Source of the DNA: an uncultured Candidatus Poseidoniales archaeon
GTDB lineage: Archaea; Thermoplasmatota; Poseidoniia; Poseidoniales; Poseidoniaceae
Assembly (NCBI GenBank): GCA_964013535.1
Contig: CAXGWS010000004.1
Coordinates: 22,854-86,853 of the forward strand
Direction of reading: 5' to 3'
DNA length: 64,000 nt
The translations under genes were made by a program, and so were the position numbers. Of the stretch, positions 1,909 to 40,067 are shown one piece after another. How positions within the stretch are numbered: the first letter of the stretch is position 1; each line of letters begins with the position of its first letter. The notes under the pieces were generated by a model. The model made no database searches. It was not told where the DNA came from and saw nothing but the letters and a program-made list of their open reading frames with translations.

Positions 1909-2021
1909 CTGAGTTGGTATTTGCCGGTTTTTTTGTTAGTTTTATTGCGTTTATGACAAGGTGAACCTTGAAGTTCAATGTCGTTTTGGGTCAAATATCC
2001 CCAAGGGGGATGGTGAATATT

Positions 2022-3026: not shown

Positions 3027-3079
3027 AGTTAGTTGTGGATTTTGAATTTAGGTCGACAATACGGCCTAATTGACCCAAA

Positions 3080-4390: not shown

Positions 4391-4497
4391 ATATTGGCGA
4401 ACCGCCTTTTTCAATGGCGTTAGTTTATACAATAATTCATATCATTGGGTATTTGGTTGTTACATCTAGTTGCCAATGGCCGCCATGGGGTTTGGAA

Positions 4498-8828: not shown

Positions 8829-8862
8829 AAACCCCTTGATGTTTTATAAATGCTAACACTCT

Positions 8863-8870
8863 TTTATATA
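8863..8870 (+). promoter_or_regulatory. Probable archaeal TATA box of the proteorhodopsin gene
   Basis: TTTATATA at 8863-8870, 30-45 bp upstream of the candidate ATGs at 8901 and 8916. Confidence 0.5.
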
Positions 8871-8915
8871 CTCAACCCAAAAAACAGCCGATTGAGAAAT
8901 ATGTTTAAATCGAAT

Positions 8916-10730: not shown

Positions 10731-10735
10731 TTCAA

Positions 10736-14500: not shown

Positions 14501-14595
14501 TGGTCTGCTAACAATCGTCTTCTAACAACATCGCCTCTAACATCACTAAGCCCTTCTCCAGACTTTGGTGTTGCCTCAACTCTAGTTACCTGCAT
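11569..14595 (-). CDS. purL: Phosphoribosylformylglycinamidine synthase, synthetase subunit (long form with N-terminal PurS-like domains)
   Basis: QTWSEHCKHKIF, KAETHNSPSALDPYGGAMTG, DNGAGGLSS, SESQERM, SGKDSMKN and HDCSEGG motifs. Confidence 0.96.
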   Translation of the reverse strand: MQVTRVEATPKSGEGLSDVRGDVVRRRLLADHNLTFSSVRSIVGFLINSDIDSERIAARADDLFADPIIEHSITNQSFLANKDIFDTTPDVVISVGFKPGVTDNPGKAALDGFRTIFPEANTESDISTYITYAFYGIGEQAAPEFIASTLYNNLIERAVISNQTMCQQGSWPMLEYPDKPPQHFKQPAHINLEISDDELIEISEAGLLALNLEEMKAIQSHYRNESIQQSRRAAGIVENQPTDVELECLAQTWSEHCKHKIFASKIHHKDLETGEESVVDSIFKTHIMKPTHDMQKEVDWLLSVFHDNSGVIAWDDEWSVCMKAETHNSPSALDPYGGAMTGIVGVNRDILGTGLGARPIANTDVFCFGPPDWKGHIPENLFHPSRVLRGVHSGVRVGGNESGIPTINGAIIFDERYLGKPLVYCGTVGLMPRRLPDGRESHIKTPSAGDVVYMVGGRVGYDGIHGATFSSLELTDESPSSAVQIGDPITQKKMLDMLLEARDMGLITCITDNGAGGLSSSIGEMAEYTNGCKIDLAKVPLKQSGLSPWEILVSESQERMTVAVKPEDVDRFEKLANLHEVEATAVAEFTSTGMFHVEYNDDTVAYLPIEFLHDGVPQLQLESEWNPPEHTMFKAPQDSNHNNILIDLLARPNIASKETWVRQYDHEVIAQTAVKPFVGVERDGPADAGVIAPIHGNPRGLVVSNGIAPRYSDIDAGAMAAAAIDEAVRNAVCVGVDVDKIAGLDNFCWPDPIQSEKTPDGKFKLAQLVRANRELERICRAYRLPCVSGKDSMKNDYGKGVDKISIPPTLLFSLFGDHPDVRNTATSDFKNSGDKIYLVGESLEELGASEVSFMLREKASTNGIGGSVPSLDNPEKLFQSYRALSSLINSGIVKTAHDCSEGGLGVTLAEMCIGGRIGANVDIDGTGNCSLWSRLWGESLGRIVVAVSPQHESTFLNGMSGSTVTYLGNVEDSQLLNIIDGYEEIISVDVSTMVNSWQRTLDMTGGGV

Positions 14596-14660
14596 AGTGT
14601 TCGCCTTCTTGGGTTATATTGATGGCTGTCAATACGCTCTTTGAACAATACGGAAGAATG

Positions 14661-17591
14661 TCAAAGCATGTCTTTGAGATATTTGCCGGTAAAACTGTGT
14701 TCATTCTGAGCAATTTTCTCCGGTGGACCGTATGCAATAAGTTGCCCGCCACGATCTCCACCCTCAGGACCTAAATCGATTACCCAGTCGCTGGATTTGA
14801 CAACATCTAAATGGTGTTCGATGACAATTACTGTGTGCCCTTTGCCGCGTAATTCGAGAAGCACATCGATTAGCATTTGAACATCTGATAAGGCCAAACC
14901 TGTGGTTGGCTCATCGAGGATGTAAACAGTATGTTTGTTAGGTGGACGGCGTAATTCGCTGGCTAATTTTACTCGCTGTGCTTCGCCCCCAGATAATGTT
15001 GTAGCAGGTTGGCCAAGTCTGACGTATGAAAGCCCAACCGCCCTTAAAGTGTCTAAAGTTCGGTGTATTTTTCTATGATTTTCAAAGAACTTCACTGCCT
15101 CGCCGATTGGCATTTCTAAAACATCATGAATCGTTTTACCTTTCCAAGTAACTTCCAAGCATTCTCTTGTGTATCGCTTACCATTACACACATCGCAAGT
15201 AATCCACACATCAGGTAGGAAATTCATTTCCAACTTGATTGACCCTGCGCCGCTACATGCCTCGCAGCGACCACCTTTCACGTTGAAACTAAAATGTCCT
15301 GGAGTGTAACCTCGTTCCTTAGCTAAGGTTGTCTGAGAAAATAGTTTTCTGATTTCATCGAAAACTTTGGTGTATGTGGCGGGATTTGACCTTGGGGTTC
15401 TTCCAATTGGTGATTGGTCGATAATTATCGTCTTGTCGATTTTATCGATGCCTTCTATTGTCTTATGTTTGCCGGGAGTCGTATCTGCGTTGTGTAGGGC
15501 TCTCTGTAGTGCAGGTGCTAATATTCCTGAGACTAATGATGATTTTCCGGAACCAGAAACTCCACAAACAGCGGTCATACATCCAAGTGGAAATTCAACG
15601 TTGACTGATTGTAAATTATTATGCTGGGCGCCTTTAATTTTTATTTTCTCTTTAGTCGGCTTCTTCCTTTTATCGGGTATTTCTATGGCTTTTTTGCCGC
15701 TAAGATATGCTCCAGTGATAGATTCTGAACTATTCATGACCTCTTCGGGAGGCCCATTTGCAACTACGATCCCTCCCTCTAAACCGGCACCGGGGCCGAG
15801 ATCGCAAAGCCAATCTGCCTGTCTCAAAGTATCTTCATCGTGCTCAACTACGATGAGTGTATTACCTAAATCACTTAATTCACGAAGAGTAGACAATAAT
15901 CTAGAATTATCTCTTTGATGTAATCCGATTGAGGGTTCGTCTAAGACATACATTACGCCGGTAAGTCGACTGCCAATTTGTGTTGCGAGTCTAATCCTTT
16001 GGCTCTCTCCACCAGATAGGGTATTGGCTTTTCTGTCTAAAGTTAAGTAATCAAGTCCAACGCTGTTCAAGAAATCCAGTCGACTTTCAATTTCCTTTAA
16101 GATCTCATTACCGATGAATAAACTCTTCTCATCAAGAATTTCTAACTGGTCAGCGTACAATTCTGGAGGTCCTTTGTTGCTGTCCGGTCGCCAGGCTCTA
16201 ACCAGTTCTAGACTGTCGTGAATAGAACATGAGGATACTTCAGGCAGCCTGATTCCACCTACTGTAACATGTCTTGCTGCAGCGTTCAGTTTTTCCCCGT
16301 TGCATGCGGAACAAGGTAAATCCGTCATGCAATTTATCAAACGATTTCTCGTTCTATCGGAAGAGGTTTCTGTATAGGTTTTCTCCAATCTTGGAATTAT
16401 TCCTTCCCAAGGCCTATTCATTTTGTAAACTGAACCATTATCTGATTCGAAATGGAAATTTATTACAGTTGAACCCGAGCCGTGGAGCAATATATCTTGC
16501 TCATCGTCAGACAGTAATTTGAATGGAACATGAGTTGGAATGTTGTAATAATCCGCGACCTGTTCTAACAATCTGCGATACCAGGAAGGTGACATTGAGC
16601 GTTTCCAAGGTCTTACACAACCATTGCTAATCGACATTTCATAATCGACAACCAGTTCGGTATTGAACTGTCTCTGAACGCCTAGACCTTGGCAGCTGCT
16701 GCAAGCACCCAGTGGGGAATTGAATGAAAATACTCTCGGAGAGAGTTCAGGCATGAATGCTCCGTGTTCAGGACAAGCGAAGTCTTCCGACCATGATATT
16801 ATATCTCCAGCACTATGTTCTCTTGATTTACTTCCATTAGGTAGCGGTAAATTTTCTGAAGGTTGTTTGAGAGATTCAATGGCAAGTGCCCCTCCACCCA
16901 ATCTGAGAGCTGACTCAACGGCTTCAGTAAGCCTTTGACGTGACTTCCTGCGACAGACAAAACGATCGATTCTAACATCGATATCATGACGAAAGTTCTT
17001 GTCGAGATTTGGGGGTGTTTCGAATTCAGCATCATGCCCATTGACTTTTCCGTTAAGGAATCCCTGTTCCATTAATTGGCGAAATAAATCTTGATGTGTG
17101 CCTTTTCTCGCTCTAATTACAGGAGACCAAACAGCGATAGTGTGTTCTTCTAAATTCCAAAGAATATCATCGACAATTTCCTGCACAGTTCGTCTAGCAA
17201 CTTCTACTCCACAAGTCGGGCAATGTGGTTTACCAATGCGCGCCCACAATAATCTAAGATAATCTTGGATTTCAGTGACGGTGGCAACTGTAGAACGAGG
17301 GTTATGGCTACCTTGTTTTTGGTCTATTGAAATAGCAGGTGATAACCCTTCAATACCGTCACAATCAGCCTTTTTCATTTGACCGATAAACTGTCGAGCG
17401 TAAGAAGATAGGCTTTCGACATATCTCCGCTGACCTTCAGCATAAAGGGTATCAAAAGCTAGACTGGATTTACCCGAGCCTGATACACCAGATACCACTA
17501 CGAATTTTCCGCGTGGTAATTTAACATCGATATTTTTTAGATTATGAGTTCTTGCACCACGAACGGTAATCCAGTCTTGATCATCGCTCAT
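14661..17591 (-). CDS. uvrA: Excinuclease ABC subunit A
   Basis: Two ABC modules (GVSGSGKSS twice; LSGGESQR and LSGGEAQR), Zn fingers, and GRTPRSNPATY. Confidence 0.98.
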   Translation of the reverse strand: MSDDQDWITVRGARTHNLKNIDVKLPRGKFVVVSGVSGSGKSSLAFDTLYAEGQRRYVESLSSYARQFIGQMKKADCDGIEGLSPAISIDQKQGSHNPRSTVATVTEIQDYLRLLWARIGKPHCPTCGVEVARRTVQEIVDDILWNLEEHTIAVWSPVIRARKGTHQDLFRQLMEQGFLNGKVNGHDAEFETPPNLDKNFRHDIDVRIDRFVCRRKSRQRLTEAVESALRLGGGALAIESLKQPSENLPLPNGSKSREHSAGDIISWSEDFACPEHGAFMPELSPRVFSFNSPLGACSSCQGLGVQRQFNTELVVDYEMSISNGCVRPWKRSMSPSWYRRLLEQVADYYNIPTHVPFKLLSDDEQDILLHGSGSTVINFHFESDNGSVYKMNRPWEGIIPRLEKTYTETSSDRTRNRLINCMTDLPCSACNGEKLNAAARHVTVGGIRLPEVSSCSIHDSLELVRAWRPDSNKGPPELYADQLEILDEKSLFIGNEILKEIESRLDFLNSVGLDYLTLDRKANTLSGGESQRIRLATQIGSRLTGVMYVLDEPSIGLHQRDNSRLLSTLRELSDLGNTLIVVEHDEDTLRQADWLCDLGPGAGLEGGIVVANGPPEEVMNSSESITGAYLSGKKAIEIPDKRKKPTKEKIKIKGAQHNNLQSVNVEFPLGCMTAVCGVSGSGKSSLVSGILAPALQRALHNADTTPGKHKTIEGIDKIDKTIIIDQSPIGRTPRSNPATYTKVFDEIRKLFSQTTLAKERGYTPGHFSFNVKGGRCEACSGAGSIKLEMNFLPDVWITCDVCNGKRYTRECLEVTWKGKTIHDVLEMPIGEAVKFFENHRKIHRTLDTLRAVGLSYVRLGQPATTLSGGEAQRVKLASELRRPPNKHTVYILDEPTTGLALSDVQMLIDVLLELRGKGHTVIVIEHHLDVVKSSDWVIDLGPEGGDRGGQLIAYGPPEKIAQNEHSFTGKYLKDML

Positions 17592-17658
17592 GGCCTTACC
17601 CACCCTTGATTGGATGTCAATAGTTCAATAAGTCCTCTATTTGAATTAATGGTTTTTA

Positions 17659-18531
17659 TCACAATATATTGAATGGGTGAGGTGATTCAAACCTCATTGG
17701 TTCATCAGAATGAGGGTGAAGAAATTCTAACGATGTCGCATGGAGACAAATCCTCGAAAGTGGATTGGTTTGAGCGCCGTGTAATGAGTCCCCAATTATT
17801 GGATGGCCGATGGATTTCAAGGCCATGCGTATTTGATGTCGTCGGCCGGTTTCAATCATAAGGCGGAGCAGTGATGTTTTATCTGTAGATTGTAATAGTT
17901 CCCAGTGGGTGATTGCTTGTTTAGCATATTTGTTAGATTTCGTAGTGAATTTGATGTTGAGTTGCTTATCTTCAACAAGAAATTGTTCGATAGTCCCTTT
18001 GTCATCGGTTAATTCTCCCTCAACCATTGCGTGATATGTTCGGTATACAGACCTTTGAGCAAATTGTTCTTGGAGATATTCTTTGGATTTTTTATCCTTT
18101 GCAAGCAGCATAATTCCTGATGTTTCTTTGTCAAGTCGGTGTACTATGTAGGCCCATGCCTTTGCATTATTCTGTTTAACATAGTCAACGCATTTTGAAT
18201 GGAGGGTTTTTATTTCTAATTTATCAGTGGCGACAGATAATAATTTAGCGGGTTTTTCGACAATTAAAATATAATCATCTTCGTAAATTATGTTAATTGA
18301 GTAGTTACTGAATTTAATTTCAGTCTGTGGTTCTATCTCTTTCTTAGGTTTGTCAAGTAGTTCAAAGGTGTCATCAACACTGAGTAAATATTTAGCTTGA
18401 TGAATTGTTTTTCCATTAATCTCAATACGGCCAATAGAGAGCATTTTTCTTAGTTTATTTGTCGAAGTCTTTGGGAAATTCTGTTTTAGAAATTGGAGTA
18501 ATTCAATTTCCTTAACAATGATTTTCTTCAT
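17659..18531 (-). CDS. RluA-family RNA pseudouridine synthase with an S4-like N-terminus
   Basis: VEKPAKLLS, catalytic HRLDKETSG, TGRRHQIR, GHPIIGDSLHG and LHA motifs; GGTGA SD upstream of ATG 18531. Confidence 0.92.
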   Translation of the reverse strand: MKKIIVKEIELLQFLKQNFPKTSTNKLRKMLSIGRIEINGKTIHQAKYLLSVDDTFELLDKPKKEIEPQTEIKFSNYSINIIYEDDYILIVEKPAKLLSVATDKLEIKTLHSKCVDYVKQNNAKAWAYIVHRLDKETSGIMLLAKDKKSKEYLQEQFAQRSVYRTYHAMVEGELTDDKGTIEQFLVEDKQLNIKFTTKSNKYAKQAITHWELLQSTDKTSLLRLMIETGRRHQIRMALKSIGHPIIGDSLHGAQTNPLSRICLHATSLEFLHPHSDEPMRFESPHPFNIL

Positions 18532-18539
18532 TATTTCAC

Positions 18540-19745
18540 CTACAAGAGTATAATTCTGCAAATATCGCCTTGCCGACCTTTTGCTTCGGGTTCAATAAAT
18601 GTCAAACCATCACTCATGGCAATACCTGCAATATTACCTGATCCTTGGTGACCTTTTAGTCTGGCATAGGTTTTACCGGATTTTTGAAAAAGTTGGACTC
18701 GTCTAAAGGTAGTAAAATCGTCTTGAGTCTTTATGTCTTCATCAAGTATTGCAAAGGTGTATTTATTGTGAATATCTTTTGAATTGGTTATTGCTGTTAA
18801 CCATTTTGCTACTATCGCTCTAAACACTACGTGACTGCTCACTGGGTTTCCCGGCAAACCAAAAATAGGTGTATTATTCCAAGTCCCGAAAATCGGTGGT
18901 GAACCTGGTCGCATCTTAACACGCCAAAATTTGATCTCGCCTTCTTGCTCCATTAAAATCCTAACAAAATCTCGGTCACCCATAGAAACACCACCTGATG
19001 TAATGATGCAATCATATTCTGCTGAGGCTTTGTTTAGGACAGCGCGTAGTGTATCTACATCATCTACTACACTTGGAAATCTTATTGCTTCATGCCCATA
19101 TAGTTGCACTAATGCAGATAAACCATAAGAGTTTGATTCATAGATTTGCCCATATTCTAACTCCTCAGTTAAACTTTTCAGCTCATCTCCTGTTGATATT
19201 ATAGCAATTCTTAATTTGCAATAGACCGTTACTTCCGCAACGCCTGCAGCAGCACTGAGAGAGATTCTCTCTGGAGTCATTATATCGCCTTGAGAAAAAA
19301 TGGTTTCGTTTTCAGCAAAATTCTCGCCGAGTCTTCTGATAAAATGCGGCTTAGAGGGTTCTGACAAAGTTACTGTTTCACCTTCAACGGAACACGCTTC
19401 TATTGGTAATATCGAATCAGCCCCTTTTGGTATGGGTGCGCCAGTCATAATTCTAACCGCTTCGCCATCAGAGATTTGTTTAAAATCGTGAGAACCAGCA
19501 TTAGATGTCCCAACGATAGTAAGTTTTGTTGGTGGATTTAATGTGTTTTCATAAATAACTGCAAAACCATCCATGGAAGAATTATCAAAACTAGGATCAT
19601 TGACTCTTGCTTTTACTTCGGATGATAAAATACGGTTTAGGGATTGTTCAATAGGAATTGTTTCCGATGGAAGTGAAATTAAGGAATTTTTGCATAAGTC
19701 ATTTGCTTCACCCAAAGAGATGTAGTATGGGTATGGTTTGACCAT
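18540..19745 (-). CDS. moeA: Molybdopterin molybdotransferase (gephyrin-like)
   Basis: PSFDNSSMDGFAV, RIMTGAPIPKGADS, STGDEL, YESNSY, TSGGVSMGDRD and GLPGNPVS motifs. Confidence 0.93.
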   Translation of the reverse strand: MVKPYPYYISLGEANDLCKNSLISLPSETIPIEQSLNRILSSEVKARVNDPSFDNSSMDGFAVIYENTLNPPTKLTIVGTSNAGSHDFKQISDGEAVRIMTGAPIPKGADSILPIEACSVEGETVTLSEPSKPHFIRRLGENFAENETIFSQGDIMTPERISLSAAAGVAEVTVYCKLRIAIISTGDELKSLTEELEYGQIYESNSYGLSALVQLYGHEAIRFPSVVDDVDTLRAVLNKASAEYDCIITSGGVSMGDRDFVRILMEQEGEIKFWRVKMRPGSPPIFGTWNNTPIFGLPGNPVSSHVVFRAIVAKWLTAITNSKDIHNKYTFAILDEDIKTQDDFTTFRRVQLFQKSGKTYARLKGHQGSGNIAGIAMSDGLTFIEPEAKGRQGDICRIILL

Positions 19746-19770
19746 GTGTCCCCCCAAAACCAAATTTACT

Positions 19771-20559
19771 TTGATATTATGGACTGGATTAGGGATAAAT
19801 CTGCAATATGAGTTATATTTGCTGTTTGCTGGATTGGTAATAATCGCAGCATTATACTCAAGTGTTGGACATGGTGGAGCATCTGGATATTTGGCACTGC
19901 TTTCGCTAACATCGTATGGAGTTATGAGTCATGTATGGTTGAAACAACATGTTTGGGTGATGAATTTAGTTGTTGCATCTATTGCTTTTTATCACTATAA
20001 TAAATTGGGTTATCATAATACTAAACTTACCTTTCCATTCATAATTGCTAGCATTCCAATGGCCTTTATTGGTGGTGCAATAGCAGTTGATGCTGAGATC
20101 TATGATATCTTACTGTCACTAACATTGATTTGGGCATCATATAAAATTCTCAATATAAGTGATTTTTCTAACATTAAAGCGAGCCATCCTGGGAGTTTAG
20201 AATCGTATCTTTGGGGCGGTGGAATTGGGTTTTTTAGTGGGATTATTGGTGTTGGTGGGGGTATCTTTCTTTCCCCAATTATACTATTGAAGGGTTGGGC
20301 TGACGTTAAAACTGCTGCAGCTACGGCAGCAATTTTCATCTTTGTTAACTCGCTTTCTGGATTATTTGGAATGGCAGCAGCAGCACAATTACAAATTGAT
20401 TATTCTCTACTATCAATCCTAATAATTGCGATAATTATTGGTGGATTTTTGGGTTCGTTATATGGTGCTAAATATGCCGGTAATAAGAGGGTGAGGAGTT
20501 TATTGGCGGTGGTTTTGATAGTTGCTGCTATGAAGCGTGTGATCGAATTAGTTGTTTAA
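19771..20559 (+). CDS. Sulfite exporter TauE/SafE family membrane protein (start uncertain)
   Basis: SSVGHGGASGY and GFFSGIIGVGGGIFLSP repeats; about 8 TM helices. Confidence 0.85.
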   Translation: MILWTGLGINLQYELYLLFAGLVIIAALYSSVGHGGASGYLALLSLTSYGVMSHVWLKQHVWVMNLVVASIAFYHYNKLGYHNTKLTFPFIIASIPMAFIGGAIAVDAEIYDILLSLTLIWASYKILNISDFSNIKASHPGSLESYLWGGGIGFFSGIIGVGGGIFLSPIILLKGWADVKTAAATAAIFIFVNSLSGLFGMAAAAQLQIDYSLLSILIIAIIIGGFLGSLYGAKYAGNKRVRSLLAVVLIVAAMKRVIELVV

Positions 20560-20566
20560 TGATTAA

Positions 20567-21796
20567 TTAATTTTGAAAAATGTTGTGTAGTTTTTCCGCT
20601 TGTTGCTGTGGTGAAAGTTTCAATTCTTCGATTCTTTTTCTACCAAACTCGGTCCATGATTTTCGAATCTCAGGTAACTTTGCTTGTGATAAGGCTTGAT
20701 GCCAACTTCTCACATCGTTGCGTTCGAGTAATCGACCACATTTTCCATCAATAATAGAATCTCTGAAGCCACCGTCGTTAACAAAAATGGCGGGGGTTCC
20801 AATTGAAAATGCCTCTATTGGACTCAAGCCAAATGGTTCTTTATGAGCCATACTTACAACCGCCAATGATTGTTGGATTAATATCGATAATTGCTGAGAA
20901 GATAATCTTGGTGCAATCCAAAGTTCAACTCCATTATCATCTGCATGGGATCTTAAGATTTGAAGCGATTCTGTAGTTCCGCCGCCTACATGAGCAACGG
21001 ATATTTTGCTGTCTGATAACATAGAAATCACCTCCATGGTGCCTTTTGCCCAGTTAGCGGTACCGATAGTAACAACATAATTCATTTCTATTGAGTTGGT
21101 AAAGGGGTTCTCGACGCCGTTTATGTTATCTGAATATTCTTTAGAATCGACGCAAGGATGTAAGTATGAGCAGTCGATTCCATAGACTTGTTTAATCCGT
21201 GCTGAAGTGTATGAGGAATTACCAGATATTACTGATTTTTTCCGGTTTGAGAACTTCTTGACAATTTTCAAATCGTTTTTCCTTCCTTTAGAAAGTAGTA
21301 TATTTGTTAATATCTTAGGTCTTTTCAAATTCCCATATAAGTCCCTGTGTAATGAATCCTCGTGATATCCTCGATGTGGTTCTAACAGATGTAAGTGCGC
21401 TTTTTTATCATAAGGGATCATTTCTAAAAAACCCAAATACCCATCGCCGCTAACAACATGAAAATAGTCGAATTTGGGTATGTCTGATATTAAATTCGGA
21501 CAGCTCTTCCACGCTTTAATCGATGTTGTATGGATTTTATCGAGGATTTGTGATAAACTGGTGTTAGGTGGTTGCCATGGTTGATTTGGTTGGTATAATC
21601 TGATTCCATTTTTATTACAAACGGATTCTAAATCTTGGCATGATGATAGTGTTGCAACTGATATGTCGTACCAATTTGTCAAATGAGGTAATACGCGCAA
21701 TAAATCTCGCTCTGCACCCCCCATCCTCGATATGATGCCTTTGGCAATTAGTAGCGATGGTTTTCCACTAGGCACATTTGTAGGGTGGGGTTTCAA
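20567..21796 (-). CDS. Glycosyltransferase family 4 (GT-B fold)
   Basis: GGAER N-terminal motif; EPFGLSPIEAFSIGTP donor-binding motif. Confidence 0.88.
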   Translation of the reverse strand: MKPHPTNVPSGKPSLLIAKGIISRMGGAERDLLRVLPHLTNWYDISVATLSSCQDLESVCNKNGIRLYQPNQPWQPPNTSLSQILDKIHTTSIKAWKSCPNLISDIPKFDYFHVVSGDGYLGFLEMIPYDKKAHLHLLEPHRGYHEDSLHRDLYGNLKRPKILTNILLSKGRKNDLKIVKKFSNRKKSVISGNSSYTSARIKQVYGIDCSYLHPCVDSKEYSDNINGVENPFTNSIEMNYVVTIGTANWAKGTMEVISMLSDSKISVAHVGGGTTESLQILRSHADDNGVELWIAPRLSSQQLSILIQQSLAVVSMAHKEPFGLSPIEAFSIGTPAIFVNDGGFRDSIIDGKCGRLLERNDVRSWHQALSQAKLPEIRKSWTEFGRKRIEELKLSPQQQAEKLHNIFQN

Positions 21797-21941
21797 CTAT
21801 ATTTCAACAACTGCACAATGTATGAAAAATTGTTGAAATAATGGAGGATATAGGTTTATATTGTAGACTGGGAAGAAAATAACAATACAAAATTATACCC
21901 GCTTTGGAAAGTAGGTTCGTGTAATAGGAAGTTGTGGAAGA

Positions 21942-22667
21942 ATGACTAGGCTAGTGTATATTGGAAACGATAAATGGCACAGTTGTTTCGATTCGTTGAT
22001 TAAAGATGAAGGTTTAGAAATCGTTCATTCCTTCATACCAAATGATTCATTCTACCTGAAGAATATGTGTGAGCAAAATAATTTAAATTACACATTAACG
22101 GAAAATGTAAACCATAATTTTGAAATTATCTCGACGTTGGATTTTGATATTTACTTGGTAATAGGCCACCCATTTCTACTTGATGAAAGGCTACTAAATC
22201 ATAAACAAGGAATTGGTTTCCATCCCTCACTATTACCAAAGAGGCGAGGGCGGGCACCCATAAATTGGGCCATTATTGACGGACTGAAAGAATCGGGAGT
22301 TACCCTTTTTTATCTGGCTGAAGGAATCGATAATGGTGGTATAATTTTTCAGGAAAAGTTCGCTATTAATGACCAGGATACTGCCGCGATTTTGATCAGG
22401 AAGATTTGTGCAATTTTGGTTAACAATTTGAAAAATATTCTGCATAGTTGGCCTGAATTACAAGTTATTCAACAAGACGAAAAAGAAGCAACTTATACAA
22501 TTAAACGAAATCCTAGCGATGGTGAGATAACCAGAGATATGAGTGCAAAGGATGCAGAAAGGATGGTTAGAGCGCTTAACGGACCTTACCCATCGGCTTA
22601 CATCACTATGAATAATGGAGAACGACTATACATTAACGAGGCGTCAATAAATGAGTTCGAAGAGTAA
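21942..22667 (+). CDS. Formyltransferase (Fmt/ArnA-N-terminal-like), probably a sugar N-formyltransferase
   Basis: GFHPSLLPKRRGRAPINW, SGVTLF and GIDNGGI motifs; C-terminal RALNGPYPSAY; sits inside a glycan cluster. Confidence 0.8.
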   Translation: MTRLVYIGNDKWHSCFDSLIKDEGLEIVHSFIPNDSFYLKNMCEQNNLNYTLTENVNHNFEIISTLDFDIYLVIGHPFLLDERLLNHKQGIGFHPSLLPKRRGRAPINWAIIDGLKESGVTLFYLAEGIDNGGIIFQEKFAINDQDTAAILIRKICAILVNNLKNILHSWPELQVIQQDEKEATYTIKRNPSDGEITRDMSAKDAERMVRALNGPYPSAYITMNNGERLYINEASINEFEE

Positions 22668-23436
22668 TTTTCCCTATACCCCATTCTCATATGATGAATA
22701 TAGACATATTCTACAACAATTGTTAGATAACTTACCGATATTAGACTATGCTGAGATAAATAATGAAACTGGTAGTTTCTGTATCATTAGGCATGATGTT
22801 GAATTTTCTTTAGAAAGAGCTTTGAAACTAGCAATTATTGAACATGAAATGGATGTTAAGGCTAGTTATTTTATTCAACTTAACAACAGTACATACAATG
22901 CAATATCTCATGAAAGTCTTAACATAATAAGAAAAATTAGTGAATTAGGACATAAGATTGGTATTCATTTTTCTCCAAGTAGTAGCAACGTAGATTTAGT
23001 TAAACAAGAGTTTTACTTTTTCAGAGATTTGTTTGAGAATAGATTGAATACGACAATTGACCGTTTCTCATTTCATAGACCCAATTTAAATCCACAATTA
23101 TTACAAAATAACATAAAAATTGACGGTGTGATAAATGCTTACGGTGATTTATATTTCGAATATTTCGATGGTAATGTTCCAAAAAATCCGGCGATAAAAT
23201 ATATTTCTGATTCAAATCATCAGTGGAAGTACGGTCATCCATTAGATGTAATTGAATCTGATTGTAAAAAAGTTCATATCTTAATACATCCATTTTCTTG
23301 GTCAAAGATTGGAGGGGATAATTTGGCTAATTATCAGTCTTTATTGGAAGAAAAAAATAATAGTTTAATGATTTCAATTAATTCAGAAATATCAAATTTT
23401 CCATTTGATGAAATAATGAAAAATAATGATATTTGA
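22651..23436 (+). CDS. Polysaccharide deacetylase-like (NodB/CE4-related) protein
   Basis: RHDVEFSLERAL, ASYFI, GHKIGIHF, FSFHRP and LIHPFSW motifs, typical of deacetylase-like proteins in glycan clusters. Confidence 0.65.
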   Translation: MSSKSNFPYTPFSYDEYRHILQQLLDNLPILDYAEINNETGSFCIIRHDVEFSLERALKLAIIEHEMDVKASYFIQLNNSTYNAISHESLNIIRKISELGHKIGIHFSPSSSNVDLVKQEFYFFRDLFENRLNTTIDRFSFHRPNLNPQLLQNNIKIDGVINAYGDLYFEYFDGNVPKNPAIKYISDSNHQWKYGHPLDVIESDCKKVHILIHPFSWSKIGGDNLANYQSLLEEKNNSLMISINSEISNFPFDEIMKNNDI

Positions 23437-23447
23437 ACAGTTTAAAT

Positions 23448-24287
23448 TTAGTTATGAAAAATTATCCCATCATCACCATGTCCTGAATTAAACATTTGTT
23501 CGAGTGTGGCAACGCCAACAGTGATTGGGTATGTAGAATCCTTTGATGGAATGGTGAGTTGGGTCAAATGTTTTGGTATGTTGTCGACAAAATCTGTTAA
23601 AGTAACACCTGCTACATTAGTTATGTGATGGGGGAGAAATTCAACAATTAGGGTGTTTGTATTTGAGAGAATTTCTTTCATCCCCCGCATGGCAAAATAT
23701 TCTGAACCTTCTATATCTATGAGTACTAGATCAAAATTTTTGTTTGAAAGATATGAATCGAGTGAATAGGCTTCTACACCTATAACCTCTGGATTGTCAT
23801 ATGTATACATGTAGTTATTGTTTACTGGGACTCTTTTACTGCCGCCAGAATTGACTGTATTCAACTGAAATTGTATTATCTCTTCCTTTTCACTTGCGGC
23901 TATATTATGGGCAACAATGTTTGAAACATTATTTAATTTTATATTCGTTTCAAATAGTTTGAAATTATTTGGGTTTGCTTCTATTGCAGTTACTTCTGAA
24001 CATATTTTAGCGACTGGTATTGCTAAGGAACCAATATGAGCACCAACAATCAATACCTTAGAATCATTGTCAATATAATTTGATATTCGATTGATTTCGT
24101 CGATTCCATACTCGCCTTTTGTCCTTAGTTTAGCGCCTACTTCAAGATCTGCGGCGTCAACAAGAAAGGTCCCGTTTTTTGTGTTTACAGTTAGTGCCGA
24201 AACATTACCATCAAGGCGTTTTTTTAACCGTTTAGATTTTCTATTTTTCAAGAAAAAATTTACTCGCCAATAAAGCGATTTAAGCAT
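23448..24287 (-). CDS. FkbM-family methyltransferase
   Basis: VGAHIG SAM motif, IEANPNNF and LIDIEGSEY motifs. Confidence 0.88.
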   Translation of the reverse strand: MLKSLYWRVNFFLKNRKSKRLKKRLDGNVSALTVNTKNGTFLVDAADLEVGAKLRTKGEYGIDEINRISNYIDNDSKVLIVGAHIGSLAIPVAKICSEVTAIEANPNNFKLFETNIKLNNVSNIVAHNIAASEKEEIIQFQLNTVNSGGSKRVPVNNNYMYTYDNPEVIGVEAYSLDSYLSNKNFDLVLIDIEGSEYFAMRGMKEILSNTNTLIVEFLPHHITNVAGVTLTDFVDNIPKHLTQLTIPSKDSTYPITVGVATLEQMFNSGHGDDGIIFHN

Positions 24288-24296
24288 TATAAATCC

Positions 24297-24602
24297 TCAA
24301 TCGAATTTCATTACGTGATTGCATTCAGGATATGAACAGCTCACTGTGTATCTCTGTTTCTTGGGTTTAGGAATTTTTAGACGGCAGCCACACATATCAC
24401 ATTGAACAACAAGAGTTTCGGGTTCTGATGGTTTCGGAGCATCTTCTAATACTCGTCCAGCTGCAGATTTTGACCAGCCTAATGAATCAGTATAATCGTC
24501 GGTCTTCTTGATTTTATTTTGTCTTAATGACAGGCGCATCTTTCTCTTCTTTTTACGTGGTTTTTGGTTACCGCCACTTCGAGTTGGTCTTTTCCTTGCC
24601 AT
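24297..24602 (-). CDS. Small basic protein with a C-terminal zinc ribbon
   Basis: K/R-rich N-terminus; CDMC...CSYPEC Cys pairs. Confidence 0.7.
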   Translation of the reverse strand: MARKRPTRSGGNQKPRKKKRKMRLSLRQNKIKKTDDYTDSLGWSKSAAGRVLEDAPKPSEPETLVVQCDMCGCRLKIPKPKKQRYTVSCSYPECNHVMKFD

Positions 24603-24705
24603 GCCAATCGAATACCGGTAAGGGTATAACTATTCAATCGCTTCGCAATATAGGTTGTATGATATTTTACATTATTTGATAAACTAAAGCGATTAATTCA
24701 TCTTC

Positions 24706-25227
24706 ATGCTAAAACGATTAGTTGTCTTGCTTGTATTCGCAGTCACAATGTCTGGAGATATTGGTCTGTTGCAGGATGAAGGAGAAGTACACACTGTTAC
24801 AGTAGATGGTTTTGGCACAAATATTAGGTTCGTCCCTGATACTTTAACAATAAATGAAGGTGACACTGTTAGGTTTCTTTGGAGTGGTCAGTTATTACCA
24901 CACAATGCTATTGAAGTAAATGAGTTGTTCAATTCTGGAGACGCAATGAGAAATGTTGACTATACATACACATTCAATTATACTCAATCTGGAGTGTATG
25001 AGTTTTACTGTGAGCCTCATAGAGACCTTGGAATGCTTGGTCAAATTACCGTTAATGATGTACAATTAAACAACACCACTGTAGAAACTGGGATTGAAAC
25101 TAAAAATGATGATGTGTTAAATCAAAATGATTCAAAAATTAGTACGAATTTACTATTGGCCGCTGGTGTATGTGTTATTGGTTTGATTTATTTTAGAACA
25201 AGAATTGATGATATTGCTAAAATTTAA
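24706..25227 (+). CDS. Plastocyanin/halocyanin-like type-1 blue copper protein, membrane anchored
   Basis: Signal peptide; PHNA His ligand; YCEPHRDLGM Cys/His/Met ligands; C-terminal TM helix. Confidence 0.9.
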   Translation: MLKRLVVLLVFAVTMSGDIGLLQDEGEVHTVTVDGFGTNIRFVPDTLTINEGDTVRFLWSGQLLPHNAIEVNELFNSGDAMRNVDYTYTFNYTQSGVYEFYCEPHRDLGMLGQITVNDVQLNNTTVETGIETKNDDVLNQNDSKISTNLLLAAGVCVIGLIYFRTRIDDIAKI

Positions 25228-25229
25228 CA

Positions 25230-26543
25230 TTATTCAATGATGTATGAATGACCATTCTCTGGTGAATGGGTGTTGATTCCATTGCTCTCCAATTCCTCTA
25301 CTAAGTGGGGTCTGGAATTATTGGGATCTGTGTGGTAAATTATAACGTCTTGTGGATCACATGAATAAACGAATTCAGTTATTTCTTTGTGACCTGCGTG
25401 GGTTGAGAATGAAAATTTTTCCCAATTAAGGGGTATGTTAACTTCTTTACCAAAAATGTCTAAACGTGACTTGGTTTGCAGTTTTCTACCTCCTGTGTCT
25501 TTTGCCTGATAACCAGTAAAGAAAATTTCATTTTCCATATTATGCCTTAGCCTGTTGAGATACCATATTGCTGGGCCGCCTTGCAACATACCTGATGTTG
25601 ATATGATTACATCGGCTTCAAGGGCTTTTTTCCTATCAGATTTACTTGATACTCTTTTTGACCAGTTCCAAGCATCATTAAGTGCAGATGGGTTACGTAA
25701 AAATTGATTGTGTTCAAGGTGTAATTTGGTTATTCTTTTACCCATACCATCAATGTGAACATCAAGCTCGGGACAATTCTGGTGGAGTCGCATCATCATA
25801 TCTTGCGTTCTACCGTTGGCAAAGGCTGGAATTAGAATAGTACCACCATTATCTGTTACTCTTATTACATTGTCAATAAACCTGGATAGTTCCAATTCTT
25901 GGTCTGCATGGTTCCTCCCGCCATAAGTTCCTTCAATGAATAATATATCTACATCCTCGGGTTTTGCTCCTTTTGTTAATGGAGAGTTTCTAGTATCAAA
26001 ATCGCCAGTGAAAAGAATATTTTTGTCATCAGTTTCTACCTTTAACATACCTGCACCAGGAATGTGACCGGCGTTGAGTAATGTTAATTTCCAATTTTCT
26101 TGTATCCATGAATCGTTAAAATCATGGGTAATCCATGAATCCATAGCAATATCAATGTCTCTTTTATCCCAAGGAAGGGGATATTTTTCAATACTGCTTA
26201 TTTTGTAACAATCATTCCACATCATACGAGATATTTCTGCAGTGAGCTCTGTACCATGTAAATTGGTGTTATAATTAGCAGGCAGCCATGGTGCCATTCC
26301 TAAATGATCAACATGTGAATGAGTGATAATTGCATTTTTTACAAATGGTGCTTCTTTTGGATATTTTGGAGGTGAAGTGGGAGCAATTCCATAATCTAGA
26401 AGCAGTCTATTTTTCGTTTTATCTTCTAAGACTACACCAACGTTACCTACTTCATTTCCACCACCAAGATAGTGATAGCGATACCCTGAATTAATCTGAT
26501 CTTCAGAATATTCTGAGGTCCTACCTGGGTTGTAAAATACCAT
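25230..26543 (-). CDS. MBL-fold beta-CASP ribonuclease (aCPSF-like)
   Basis: GGGNEVG, LLDYG, THSHVDH, GHIPGA, FTGD, EGTYG, TSGMLQGG and FSTHAG motifs. Confidence 0.9.
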   Translation of the reverse strand: MVFYNPGRTSEYSEDQINSGYRYHYLGGGNEVGNVGVVLEDKTKNRLLLDYGIAPTSPPKYPKEAPFVKNAIITHSHVDHLGMAPWLPANYNTNLHGTELTAEISRMMWNDCYKISSIEKYPLPWDKRDIDIAMDSWITHDFNDSWIQENWKLTLLNAGHIPGAGMLKVETDDKNILFTGDFDTRNSPLTKGAKPEDVDILFIEGTYGGRNHADQELELSRFIDNVIRVTDNGGTILIPAFANGRTQDMMMRLHQNCPELDVHIDGMGKRITKLHLEHNQFLRNPSALNDAWNWSKRVSSKSDRKKALEADVIISTSGMLQGGPAIWYLNRLRHNMENEIFFTGYQAKDTGGRKLQTKSRLDIFGKEVNIPLNWEKFSFSTHAGHKEITEFVYSCDPQDVIIYHTDPNNSRPHLVEELESNGINTHSPENGHSYIIE

Positions 26544-26600
26544 TCTGTATCATTATTGCTAAATTGTCATGTAACATTTAGTTGATGGATGAATAATAGA

Positions 26601-26843
26601 TCCCACCCCTTTATTTCTACTGGAAAAAAATTTTACAGATTGAGTATCTAATTTCTATTTGTTGACGTAATAATTTATAGACTACTTTCAAGATAAAACA
26701 GATGCCGTTTTCACTATTTCTTATTTTTTTACCATTTTCACTCTTAGTAAATTACAGTATCATTTTCAGTGGAAATAGGGGGGTCTTAACTTGTATACAT
26801 CCAATAATAGAAAAATCGGAAAAAACGTTTCCAGTGGGATAAA
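26601..26843. other. Candidate chromosomal replication origin (oriC): inverted ORB pair flanking an AT-rich DUE-like spacer, plus a mini-ORB
   Basis: Minus-strand TTCCAGTAGAAATAAAGGGGT at 26605-26625; plus-strand TTTCAGTGGAAATAGGGGGGT at 26764-26784; TTCCAGTGGGATAAA at 26829-26843; 138 bp spacer with 33 G+C (hand count). Confidence 0.75.
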
Positions 26844-26918
26844 TTTTCAATCAAAAATCGATTATTGTTTCTTTAGGAACCACATAAAATCAAAATGTAA
26901 TTGATTGTTAGCGGTTTT

Positions 26919-27125
26919 ATGGCAAGAGTTGTCGACCATGTCTTTCACGTTGACGAAGACAAATGCTATGGCTGCGGTGCCTGCATAGCTCTATGTCCAG
27001 TCAATGTTCTAGATCTTCATAACAGAATAGCTGTCGTTGATGAAAGTAATTGTACTCACTGTGAACTCTGTATCCCATCATGTCCAGTATTTGCATTAGA
27101 CATAATACCGGAGATTACCGTATGA
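26919..27125 (+). CDS. 2x[4Fe-4S] dicluster ferredoxin
   Basis: CYGCGACIALCP and CTHCELCIPSCP motifs. Confidence 0.93.
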   Translation: MARVVDHVFHVDEDKCYGCGACIALCPVNVLDLHNRIAVVDESNCTHCELCIPSCPVFALDIIPEITV

Positions 27126-27847
27126 CCACTATTGCTATTATTGGTAACAATCTAGTTGGCTTGTTTTGTGCAGGAATACTATCAGATAATAATGAAGTAT
27201 TGATAATAAATTCGGAATTAGAGTTGGGTTTTCCGGCAAGTTTTCCAGGCTCATCTAATGATATAAATTTTCTAAAAAACTTTCTTTCAGATCAACAAAT
27301 TGATCAATTATTTATCAAAGATTCTCTAGATTCTAGTAATTTTAGGTCTGAGTGGTTCAGTAAACTAGTTACTCATAAATTAGCAAAAAAAGGGGTATTG
27401 ATTGCCAATAGAACAAGAATATCTGATATCAATAATGTCGATGGCAACTTAATATTATCAACAACTGGAGGCTATCTTAATGTTGAAAATTTTGAATGTA
27501 AAACAATTCTAGATTTTTCTGAATATAGTTACAATCCACTTGCAAGTAAAACTCATCAATACAAATTAACTGATCGTAATATTATCAAACCAAAAATTGA
27601 TACTAAACAATTTTTTGTCGGAATATGTTTGGAAAGCGAAGCACATAACCTTTCAAAATATCAGTTAAAACTTCCAAGAAATGATGGTTTGGTAGAAACT
27701 TGGTATGACAAAGATAACTTAGAATCACCAAATAAAGGATGGATAGAATCAAAAACCGTCAAAGCTTATTTTGAATCTAAGATTATGCTTGTAGAAGATT
27801 ACTTTATCAAAGCCCAAGAAATATGTAAAAATATGGTGATACAATGA
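27122..27847 (+). CDS. Divergent, short FAD-oxidoreductase (geranylgeranyl-reductase-like) homolog
   Basis: Degenerate Rossmann start IAIIGNNLVG; ELGFPASFPG; R..F.K.......KKGV.I...TRISDI segment; ATGA overlap with the ferredoxin. Confidence 0.5.
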   Translation: MTTIAIIGNNLVGLFCAGILSDNNEVLIINSELELGFPASFPGSSNDINFLKNFLSDQQIDQLFIKDSLDSSNFRSEWFSKLVTHKLAKKGVLIANRTRISDINNVDGNLILSTTGGYLNVENFECKTILDFSEYSYNPLASKTHQYKLTDRNIIKPKIDTKQFFVGICLESEAHNLSKYQLKLPRNDGLVETWYDKDNLESPNKGWIESKTVKAYFESKIMLVEDYFIKAQEICKNMVIQ

Positions 27848-28608
27848 ATACTGAAAAATTATACATGAACGATATTGAATCAGCCTATTTCACAAAATTC
27901 AACGCCAAGGTTATTTCAGTTGAAGGCAATAAAATAGGCTTAGATAGGACCTTATTTTATCCACTTGGCGGTGGTCAAAACTGGGATTTTGGGCATTTTA
28001 ATACAGATAATGGATCTGTTAACGTTACCGAGGTTAGAGGTAGAAATCTAATTGAGCATCAAGTAGACGCGGATCATCAGTTGTCAATAGGTGATGAAAT
28101 AACTGGAGAAATTGACTGGGATAGGAGATACTCACACATGAGAATGCATACTTCTCAACACTTGATGTCTGGACTTGCATACGAAATGTTCAATGGCGTT
28201 AGGACTGTTGGAAATCAAATACATACATCACATTCTAGAATAGATTTCAATCCAATTAGTTTTACTGAAGAAATGATGGATAAACTTTCACAAAAGGCAA
28301 ATCAAATAATTAAACAAAACCTCGAGGTATCAGATTGTATAATGACTAGAGAACAAATAAATTCCATCATGCCGGAAGATAGGACAAATATGGATTTGTT
28401 ACCTAAATCCATAACAGATCTTAGGGTTGTAAAGATAGGTGATAATGTTGATTTGTGCCCATGTGCAGGAACCCACATATCAAATCTGTCAGAGCTTGGT
28501 GAAATTTCTATAATCGGTAAGAAGTCAAAAGGTAAGGGGACTCAAAGAATAACTTATGAATTAATCAACAATCCAAAGATTATAACCCCAAACTCACAAA
28601 TCATCTAA
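27844..28608 (+). CDS. alaX: Alanyl-tRNA editing protein (AlaXp)
   Basis: DRTLFYPLGGGQ, RYSHMRMHTSQHL (HxxxH) and DLCPCAGTH (CxGxH) motifs. Confidence 0.92.
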   Translation: MNTEKLYMNDIESAYFTKFNAKVISVEGNKIGLDRTLFYPLGGGQNWDFGHFNTDNGSVNVTEVRGRNLIEHQVDADHQLSIGDEITGEIDWDRRYSHMRMHTSQHLMSGLAYEMFNGVRTVGNQIHTSHSRIDFNPISFTEEMMDKLSQKANQIIKQNLEVSDCIMTREQINSIMPEDRTNMDLLPKSITDLRVVKIGDNVDLCPCAGTHISNLSELGEISIIGKKSKGKGTQRITYELINNPKIITPNSQII

Positions 28609-29256
28609 TATTTCGTCTAATTCATCGATTAAATTATCCCACTTCTTACGAGCTAAATTTTTATTTTGTACTTCCAACCCATCTTCAATAGAAGATCTAA
28701 CTCCAATTAATCTATCCTCACCAACTCTTTCGTTTTTATCAGTGGGGTTTATTGTTTTACTTGGGATAGTTCGCTTACCGTCGTAATTCTGCATTGCTAA
28801 TTCTTCATCAGTCCATGTTTCATCTCCAATCATCTTGGCAATCTCATTACTCGGCGGGTTATTTTTCCAAACATTTTTACTACCTAAATCTTGTAACAAA
28901 CGTTTTGATTGAGATTCATTTTTGTTATATAATTCACTAATATCTTCAGGATAAACATAACCACCATCAAAACTCACACTACCGATTAACGATTGTTGAT
29001 AGGTCAATTCTTCTCCATGAATCTCGTCATTGTCAAACATTTCTGGTTTTGACAACATAGAATATAATTCCCTCATATGTTGAATCAAGACAGAATCATC
29101 ATTACCGATTATAATATTTTTAATTTTTTTATGATAATCTATACATATTTTACATCGAAGCAAACCACTTTTATCAACAGCATCGCAACGTAAACAACAC
29201 CCTTGAAATCCTAAAGATTTCATTGCTTTGCGTGGCTGCGCCATTATATCAACCAT
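28594..29256 (-). CDS. Hypothetical protein with an N-terminal Cys4 motif
   Basis: CCLRC...CKIC near the N-terminus; 222-aa ORF filling the gap between flanking genes. Confidence 0.65.
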   Translation of the reverse strand: MVDIMAQPRKAMKSLGFQGCCLRCDAVDKSGLLRCKICIDYHKKIKNIIIGNDDSVLIQHMRELYSMLSKPEMFDNDEIHGEELTYQQSLIGSVSFDGGYVYPEDISELYNKNESQSKRLLQDLGSKNVWKNNPPSNEIAKMIGDETWTDEELAMQNYDGKRTIPSKTINPTDKNERVGEDRLIGVRSSIEDGLEVQNKNLARKKWDNLIDELDEILDDL

Positions 29257-29315
29257 ATTCACCTAAACTCTCATCATATAATAGGATTCAATAAACTGGA
29301 GGCTTTGTAACCATC

Positions 29316-30239
29316 ATGGCGAGTCGTGACCCAAGAGCCGACATCGTCGATAACAATCCATTTCCTAAACCAAAAATCCAACGAATACATTCTGGAGGCA
29401 GCAGTAGTAAAAATACAGTTTACACCATGGATGATTTGAAAAATATGTTTACTAGTAAAACCCAGAAAAAACCTCAGTTAAAGCAAGTTTGGGAATTCAG
29501 TGATATAGAAAAACAGAATCTTCTATTAGCAACTGCAGCCTTCACGCTCGCCTTAGGATTTGTCTCTGTTAGGGGTTTTTGGGGAATTAATGAATTGGGG
29601 GCTACAGAATGGATATTGATGTTATTACTATCTATGCCTGTAATGCTGCTTGCTGTCGGACCCGCTTTTCTATTACACGAAATCGGCCACAAAATTATCG
29701 CTAAACGTAACGGCTGTTGGGCTGAGTTTAGAGCCGATCCAGGTGGTTTGAGGTTCGGTCTCTTACTATCGTTTTTCTTCGGATTTTTATTTATGGCTCC
29801 AGGTGCGGTAATGTGCCAAGGCCTAGTTACTAGAAGGGAAAACGGGCATATCGCAGTAGCTGGCCCATTGACTAATTTAGGATTATTTCTTATCGGTACG
29901 CCAATATGGATACTTATTATTGGATTATCCGGGGCTTTAGACTCAAACCCCCCCTCTATGTTTAGTGGGGACTTCGATGGAGTTTACTTAGATGGTAATT
30001 CAATTGTATGGCAGGCAATGGTTGTTGATGCTGGTGTTGTTTGGTTAGGCGCTAACTTAGTTCTAGGATTATTCAATATGATACCATTTGGACCGTTGGA
30101 CGGTGCTAAAGTTAAGGATTGGAGCGAACAAGCATTTTACACAGTGTTTCTGATATTCCTAATTCCTCTGTTATGCTGGTTCCTTAAGATTTGGTCTCCA
30201 AAGCAATTATTAGTTTCAGGTGTAGCGTTTTTATTCTAA
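29316..30239 (+). CDS. Site-2 protease (M50 family membrane Zn metallopeptidase)
   Basis: LLHEIGHK (HExxH), IAVAGP and FNMIPFGPLDG motifs; multiple TM helices. Confidence 0.92.
   Translation: MASRDPRADIVDNNPFPKPKIQRIHSGGSSSKNTVYTMDDLKNMFTSKTQKKPQLKQVWEFSDIEKQNLLLATAAFTLALGFVSVRGFWGINELGATEWILMLLLSMPVMLLAVGPAFLLHEIGHKIIAKRNGCWAEFRADPGGLRFGLLLSFFFGFLFMAPGAVMCQGLVTRRENGHIAVAGPLTNLGLFLIGTPIWILIIGLSGALDSNPPSMFSGDFDGVYLDGNSIVWQAMVVDAGVVWLGANLVLGLFNMIPFGPLDGAKVKDWSEQAFYTVFLIFLIPLLCWFLKIWSPKQLLVSGVAFLF

Positions 30240-37853: not shown

Positions 37854-40067
<2,214 letters not shown>

Follow-up and report, generated by a model that had tools for sequence, protein, structure and literature searches.

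A candidate replication origin of the archaeal ORB type, conserved across Poseidoniales (Marine Group II) and unlinked to orc1/cdc6

Marine Group II (MGII) archaea, the Poseidoniales, are among the most abundant archaea of the surface ocean and are without a cultured representative. In the 64-kb stretch of DNA from an uncultured Poseidoniales archaeon that was analysed here (hereafter the window), a 375-nt gap separates the start codon of a gene for a beta-CASP metallo-beta-lactamase ribonuclease (ATG at 26543, minus strand) from that of a ferredoxin gene (ATG at 26919). Judged from its sequence, this gap most probably contains a chromosomal replication origin of the canonical archaeal type, built on origin recognition boxes (ORBs). 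A first reading of the window, made from its letters without database searches (the sequence-only reading), had put forward a candidate origin at this place, and the proposal is now supported on two counts: relatives keep the boxes at the syntenic site, and strand composition has an inflection here. A full-text literature search found no paper describing an MGII origin. The elements on which the identification is built are the following.

26601-26625, minus strand: ORB-1, proximal to the beta-CASP gene, TTCCAGTAGAAAT-AAA-GGGGTGGGA, with its G-string pointing away from the spacer
26626-26763, no strand: spacer between the two ORB cores, 138 nt, 76% AT, partly conserved and partly variable
26764-26784, plus strand: ORB-2, distal, on the ferredoxin side, TTTCAGTGGAAAT-AGG-GGGGT, with its G-string pointing away from the spacer
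26829-26843, plus strand: mini-ORB, a dyad core TTCCAGTGGGA without G-string, recognised by sequence and conserved position

Read on the minus strand, 26605-26625 is TTCCAGTAGAAATAAAGGGGT and runs on into GGGA (26601-26604), while ORB-2 at 26764-26784 reads TTTCAGTGGAAATAGGGGGGT and the third box at 26829-26843 is the bare dyad core TTCCAGTGGGATAAA. All three boxes were found at the positions first claimed for them, and the description of the first two as an inverted pair, with outward G-strings around a 138-nt spacer of 76% AT, was likewise confirmed. Both ORBs consist of a dyad core with a G-rich tail and fit the published consensus, whose general archaeal form is CTTCCAGTGGAAACGAAAGGGGT; their 3-nt linker is that of the variant known from the related Thermoplasmata order Methanomassiliicoccales, GTTCCAGTGGAAATGG-AGGGGTA (Borrel et al. 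2014, PMC4153887). With up to three mismatches allowed, the 21-nt ORB pattern has two matches in the 64 kb as against 0.01 expected (100 shuffles), and both of them, with one and two mismatches, fall in this gap. The bare dyad core, in contrast, has five matches in the window where 4.1 are expected, so that the mini-ORB is not significant alone and the third box needs comparative support; three of the five matches cluster inside 230 bp at this locus. For this third core, then, the position given by the sequence-only reading held, and its conserved placement in relatives (see below) supports it.

For comparison we used 34 Poseidoniales species-representative genomes, retrieved by way of their beta-CASP protein (62–85% identity). 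The proximal ORB was present at the ferredoxin/beta-CASP site in all 34 genome loci, where it ends 38–63 nt before the beta-CASP ATG, and both ORBs were present in 33 of the 33 loci with enough upstream sequence, the distal box always inverted and with its G-run outward. The boxes are therefore found at the orthologous gap in every relative with enough sequence, and the conservation that could have failed the earlier proposal speaks for it instead. Spacer length hardly varies among these genomes (133–143 nt; mean 135.2, standard deviation 2.0, n = 33). Nine metagenome contigs, among the matches listed, also carry ORBs at the same site, and the metagenome MGII contigs include distant members with 53–54% beta-CASP identity as well as one high-GC member. 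Proteins identical to the window's own occur on TARA Oceans contigs of up to ~95 kb.

Within the locus, conservation is uneven. Mean pairwise identities, computed for each segment in 25 genomes of Marine Group IIa (MGIIa), were 0.89 for the proximal ORB, 0.81 for the distal ORB, 0.80 for a central 42-nt block of the spacer, 0.78 for the first of two direct repeats (both described below) and 0.69 for the mini-ORB, and 0.39–0.42 for the segments interleaved among them. The mini-ORB core, TTC-A-nnn-GAAAT, is kept 43–60 nt outside the distal ORB both in MGIIa and in the clade to which the window belongs.

As a positive control for the ORB pattern, we scanned metagenome contigs for exact matches to YTCCANTGGAAAYNNNGGGGT, which gave at least 120 loci. 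Among the matches listed, an Orc1 gene adjoins the ORB in about 40 loci (tblastn with Sulfolobus Cdc6-1, verified as PDB 2QBY_A), from which it follows that the pattern marks real origins in other archaea. In several Thaumarchaeota-like loci (L106, L171, L174), boxes with outward G-strings and starts 163–168 nt apart lie directly upstream of orc1. No Orc1-linked locus among the matches listed was assignable to MGII. The pattern in viral contigs, scanned separately, gave 30 loci with one ORB match each, which is roughly the estimated chance level, and the Orc1 tblastn against these 30 loci gave no match.

The second line of evidence comes from strand composition. Because the total GC skew of the whole window mostly tracks gene orientation, skews were computed at 4-fold degenerate sites, referenced to the plus strand and split by gene strand. 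On the left side of the gap G exceeds C and T exceeds A on the plus strand, on the right side C exceeds G and A exceeds T, with genes of both strands behaving alike, and both the GC and the AT skew are strong, at roughly 0.1–0.4 on each side. Single-breakpoint likelihood scans placed the optimum at 27.0 kb for GC (twice the log-likelihood difference, 2dLL, 19.7) and at 26.0–27.0 kb for AT (2dLL 34.1); the AT effect extends over the entire window, and the GC effect is most pronounced at distances of up to ~15 kb from the gap. Pooled relatives show the switch too, with identical sign in 28 of 28 MGII loci. Since it occurs also in MGIIa, where the far flank carries a different gene block, it is not a relic of the local inversion of ~18 kb that separates the two clades (see below). 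An inflection in strand composition, one of the checks put forward with the sequence-only reading, is thus found at the boxes. The switch argues strongly that a replication boundary lies at this point; its polarity does not by itself fix the direction of replication, and it is the boxes that mark the boundary as an origin.

The gene for the initiator lies elsewhere. No Orc1/Cdc6 was found in the window, either by Pfam on essentially all genes or by tblastn with 2QBY_A, none within ±10 kb of the site in the 34 relatives by the same two methods, and none on the source contigs, which in window coordinates span about -6.9 to +74 kb. Any initiator gene is hence at least 33 kb to the left and at least 47 kb to the right of the site, and the claim that this candidate origin is not linked to cdc6/orc1 holds for window, relatives and source contigs alike. 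Marine Group II sequences fall in both the Orc1-1 and the Orc1-2 clades (PMC3914693, PMC4153887). Orc1 presumably acts on the site in trans, and the site may be ‘the’ oriC of its chromosome.

As we envisage it, Orc1/Cdc6 made from a gene elsewhere would bind in opposite orientations at the two full ORBs (26601-26625 and 26764-26784) and, probably, at the mini-ORB (26829-26843) as well. The bound protein would then distort the DNA and load MCM onto adjacent, easily melted DNA, whereupon two forks would depart from the site in opposite directions. Binding by Orc1, unwinding and firing, as well as the position of the unwinding element, are each predicted in this scheme from the arrangement of the locus.

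Several observations weigh against an origin at this site. First, the site lacks the neighbouring orc1/cdc6 gene by which archaeal origins are usually, but not always, marked (PMC3528665). Second, leading strands leaving the site would be A+C-rich, the reverse of the bacterial rule, and because this polarity opposes the rule the cumulative GC skew of the window reaches a maximum at ~27 kb, where the bacterial rule would place a terminus. Third, beyond ~15 kb from the site most genes point towards it. Fourth, the orc1-linked control loci are short and their skews heterogeneous, and they establish no typical archaeal polarity. Finally, the spacer of most relatives is not markedly AT-rich (60–71% AT against a background of 55–61%). 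Some of these points bear on particular alternatives.

The absence of a local initiator gene would suit a site that is bound by Orc1 yet inactive, be it a dormant or relic origin or a regulatory site for the divergent beta-CASP and ferredoxin promoters, with the firing origin elsewhere, for example beside orc1. Haloarchaea are reported to have dormant origins that carry ORBs (PMC4595724). Moreover, each ORB abuts a conserved promoter-like block, as can be seen from the features that border the gap.

25230-26543, minus strand: gene for the beta-CASP metallo-beta-lactamase ribonuclease (Pfam Lactamase_B, Beta-Casp, RMMBL)
26567-26589, minus strand: block separating the beta-CASP ATG from ORB-1, CCATCAACTAAATGTTACATGAC when reverse-complemented, conserved in the clade alignment
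26880-26902, plus strand: conserved block CCACATAAAATCAAAATGTAATT, 17–39 nt before the ferredoxin ATG, from the alignment of the window's clade
26919-27125, plus strand: ferredoxin gene, 2x[4Fe-4S] (Pfam Fer4, NCBIfam)
27080-27847, plus strand: gene for an FAD/NAD-binding-like protein, overlapping the ferredoxin gene and, like it, a conserved neighbour on the distal side

The block at 26567-26589 is nearly invariant within the window's clade, and its MGIIa equivalent, CCGACATATTCAT, has a pairwise identity of 0.81 (25 MGIIa genomes). From its position 28–40 nt before the ATG it would be the promoter of the beta-CASP gene, with B recognition element and TATA box (BRE/TATA), and the block at 26880-26902, likewise from its position, would be that of the ferredoxin gene. 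As both promoters are directly outside the ORBs, initiator binding may also influence the beta-CASP and ferredoxin genes. However, an inactive or purely regulatory site would not yield a strand-independent switch centred on it in 28 of 28 loci, and the fixed spacing of 133–143 nt, the extra mini-ORB and the AT-rich flank fit the architecture of an origin, such that we regard inactivity of the site as unlikely.

The polarity of the skews raises another alternative, namely that the site is a replication terminus or region of fork convergence, that MGII follow the bacterial rule of G+T-rich leading strands, and that the ORB-like boxes are an Orc1-bound barrier or serve some other role. The polarity fits, in that the plus strand changes from G/T-rich on the left to C/A-rich on the right and cumulative GC skew peaks at ~27 kb, but this counts towards a terminus only if MGII do follow the bacterial rule; in addition, the far genes, including those for thermosome and DnaK, mostly point towards the site. 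On the other hand, we know of no system with ORBs at a terminus, and in our control scan the ORB pattern co-occurs with orc1. Nearby gene orientation also points the other way, with 68% of coding bases within ±15 kb directed away from the site (ORF-table count, ORF being open reading frame); taken over all distances, gene orientation is equivocal. Skew direction is not universal either, since leading strands are A+C-rich in three yeasts, Saccharomyces cerevisiae, K. lactis and C. albicans (PMC3459929), and archaeal termini studied so far show broad rather than sharp skew features, as in Thermococcales, where oriC has the sharp feature and the terminus a broad one (PMC2958812). With the dif-site definition of the latter study (PMC2958812), a search of 33 loci for dif-like 11-N(4-10)-11 inverted repeats, matching at 9/11 or more, turned up none whose position is conserved. 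A terminus is on this evidence quite improbable, somewhat more so than an inactive Orc1-bound site.

That the boxes are a chance inverted repeat, or the terminal inverted repeats of a mobile element, unrelated to replication, can practically be dismissed: the arms do form a 41-nt imperfect inverted repeat with 73% complementarity, but only their ORB part is conserved, each locus has one copy, always in the same syntenic place, with flanking proteins 53–85% identical, chance would give 0.01 matches, and viral contigs carry the pattern at roughly the estimated chance level and have no Orc1 there.

Returning to the origin, the DNA between and beside its boxes has features of its own.

26673-26716, minus strand: central conserved non-ORB block, reverse complement ...GAAAACGGCATCTGTTTTATCTTGAAAGTAGTCTATAAAT, the best-conserved part of the spacer in the window's clade
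26705-26715 and 26732-26742, minus strand: two direct repeats AGTGAAAA(C/T)GG, 27 nt apart, from a repeat search, exact matches and alignments
26785-26828, no strand: AT-rich stretch of 44 nt that separates ORB-2 from the mini-ORB and could instead be the unwinding element

The sequence-only reading had cast the spacer as the unwinding element. Its AT content in the window agrees with that role, but the lower AT content of the spacer in relatives and the conserved motifs within it do not, and the 138-nt spacer is probably not simply an unwinding element. Just beyond the distal ORB, AT content averages 77% over 50 nt, compared with 58.5% across the loci, and in 30 of 33 genomes the most AT-rich 30-mer is found beyond the ORB pair, towards the ferredoxin gene. 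A possible location of the unwinding element is therefore 26785-26828, a stretch whose sequence is not conserved (0.40 identity).

The central block is present once per locus, and its homologue in MGIIa is CGAAGTAAGACCCATTGATGTTTnTCGCGTCTAGTCC (0.80 identity over 42 nt in the 25 genomes). It is a candidate site for a second Orc1 paralogue or for another factor, while the sequence TAGTCTATAA makes an internal promoter a further candidate role. In place of the direct repeats of the window's clade, the MGIIa spacer has two copies of GAAGTAAGA. A 47-codon ORF (MPFSLFLIFLPFSLL..., 26702-26845, plus strand) starts in the spacer and extends across both ORB-2 and the mini-ORB, but it probably does not represent a gene: a similar frame exists in one relative (L001), and the frame meets a stop after 4–7 codons in four others (L004-L007) and in MGIIa. 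With this ORF broken in relatives, conservation of the spacer would be at the level of DNA and the central block would be non-coding. A C/D-box small RNA in the MGIIa spacer was considered and rejected, as the order and spacing of its boxes were unfit by eye and the window's clade is without such boxes. A whole-window Rfam scan at gathering thresholds returned no RNA family.

These elements lead us to a more specific hypothesis, which we advance tentatively and with considerably less confidence than the origin itself. Poseidoniales might replicate from an orc1-unlinked ORB origin with A+C-rich leading strands, the function of which would also need the lineage-specific 42-nt element and the direct repeats at a fixed inter-ORB distance, for example as a site for a second Orc1 paralogue or other factor. 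Were such an orc1-unlinked, A+C-rich origin real, it would represent a strong yeast-like skew polarity in a prokaryote, and standard programs for finding origins, in demanding both orc1 adjacency and bacterial polarity, would overlook or wrongly assign the origin of one of the most abundant archaea in the ocean.

Among characterized systems, the site is most readily compared with oriC1-type origins (Sulfolobus oriC1, Pyrococcus oriC and Nitrosopumilus), with which it shares the dyad core TTCCAGTGGAAA and GGGGT box as well as inverted full ORBs accompanied by a mini-ORB and AT-rich DNA; the defining features of archaeal ORB-type origins have been described (PMC3528665, PMC4010727). It differs from them in that Poseidoniales have a beta-CASP gene where those origins have orc1/cdc6, and in that the Poseidoniales spacer contains conserved non-ORB motifs and the AT-richest DNA is usually outside the pair. 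The predicted origins of Methanomassiliicoccales likewise have inverted pairs in which 3 nt link GGAAAT to the GGGGT run, the box being sometimes extended by a further GGGGGT-like run (PMC4153887). Their ORBs, in contrast, flank orc1/cdc6.1 at spacings of 39–256 nt (PMC4153887), whereas here there is no orc1 and the spacing is fixed at ~135 nt. An essential non-ORB origin element is known from Sulfolobus oriC1, where the ucm element is bound by the nucleoid protein UBP (PMC12141716). We cite ucm as a precedent only and claim no sequence relationship, but the central block and the direct repeats might, by analogy, have a similar function. As for strand composition, budding yeasts would share A+C-rich leading strands with Poseidoniales if the Poseidoniales site is an origin (PMC3459929), although the yeasts have eukaryotic multi-origin chromosomes with weak skews and the Poseidoniales skews are strong (~0.1–0.4).

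A fixed and recognizable origin would provide a physical anchor for coverage-based methods of estimating growth rate (peak-to-trough, iRep) and a natural start coordinate for closing and orienting metagenome-assembled genomes (MAGs), and the locus supplies a DNA substrate for biochemistry with recombinant MGII Orc1. It would also be a clean natural case of an order-wide conserved origin apart from its initiator gene, with a beta-CASP gene under an ORB-overlapped promoter. The unusual polarity cautions against applying the bacterial skew rule to archaeal MAGs.

Regarding the genes at the site, a beta-CASP nuclease and a ferredoxin on either side of a 375-bp gap had been named as the flanks, and both are borne out by Pfam, NCBIfam and the ATG positions. 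The beta-CASP protein is an aCPSF1-like catalytic core without KH domains, matching the NCBIfam aCPSF1 model at positions 176-627 only, and its gene adjoins the ORB pair on the proximal side in 34 of 34 genome loci. On the other side, the pair of ferredoxin and FAD-like genes adjoins the ORBs in MGIIa loci too, and the MGIIa counterpart of the FAD-like protein has weak matches to Pfam NAD_binding_8/DAO. A gene for a 101-aa protein (24297-24602, minus strand), very basic at its N-terminus and with a CxxC...CxxC zinc ribbon at its C-terminus, is directly downstream of the beta-CASP gene in every MGII locus examined, with a cupredoxin gene interposed in the window; the protein had no Pfam or NCBIfam match.

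The inversion mentioned above concerns a segment of ~18 kb that is reversed between the window's clade and the majority of MGIIa (window 9699-27847 versus L008 and L011-L034). The segment reaches from the FAD-like gene, through ferredoxin, ORB site and beta-CASP, to purQ and an acyltransferase gene, and one of its breakpoints is ~1 kb from the putative origin. Beyond the FAD-like gene are AlaX/M50/M28 genes in the window's clade and PcrB/hyp436/actin-like/S8 genes in MGIIa.

A gene for GGGPS/PcrB lies 1–6 kb from the ORBs, and points away from them, in MGIIa, in more distant MGII and in Thaumarchaeota-like loci (L091, L106, L107, L149, L152 and L187; in MGIIa for example L016, 7985-9800). The order in the Thaumarchaeota-like loci, as we read their lineage and PolD genes from the sequences, is a ~1100-aa protein (possibly PolD DP2), PcrB, an Elf1-like Zn-ribbon protein, three small genes, the ORB, orc1 and a possible DP1. 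The proximity of GGGPS to ORBs could be either a coincidence or an old linkage with oriC. The metagenome scan also contained other outward-facing ORB pairs on contigs without Orc1 (L155, 5259-5384; L081, 46-168; L115; L153, 2375-2583; L128/L130). In L155 neither the ~5 kb on the left of the pair nor the ~8.6 kb on its right contained an Orc1, and the flanks of the L155/L081 group encode a conserved 95-aa protein and enzymes resembling saccharopine or alanine dehydrogenases. Orc1-unlinked origins may be common in uncultured archaea.

Elsewhere in the window, the region from ~17000 to 30000 is of lower GC content than the remainder (0.33–0.38 versus 0.42–0.45), especially at 20567-24287. The genes of this low-GC stretch encode a glycosyltransferase, a formyltransferase, an FkbM-type methyltransferase and one hypothetical protein, and its gene content differs among relatives, some of which have a GDP-mannose dehydratase in place of these genes. 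The stretch resembles a small, variable islet for surface glycosylation next to the candidate origin. An actin/MreB-like gene (Pfam MreB_Mbl, Actin, weak Salactin) is followed by genes for hypothetical proteins of 436 and 572 aa (1968-6105, plus strand), and the actin-like and 436-aa genes are kept together across MGII clades at 68–83% identity. Finally, among genes that help to place the organism, the window carries a rhodopsin gene (8850-9698, plus strand) and a catalase-peroxidase (katG-type) gene adjoining a gene for a Fur-family regulator (37854-40010, minus strand), rhodopsin and catalase-peroxidase being ordinary for surface-ocean MGII.

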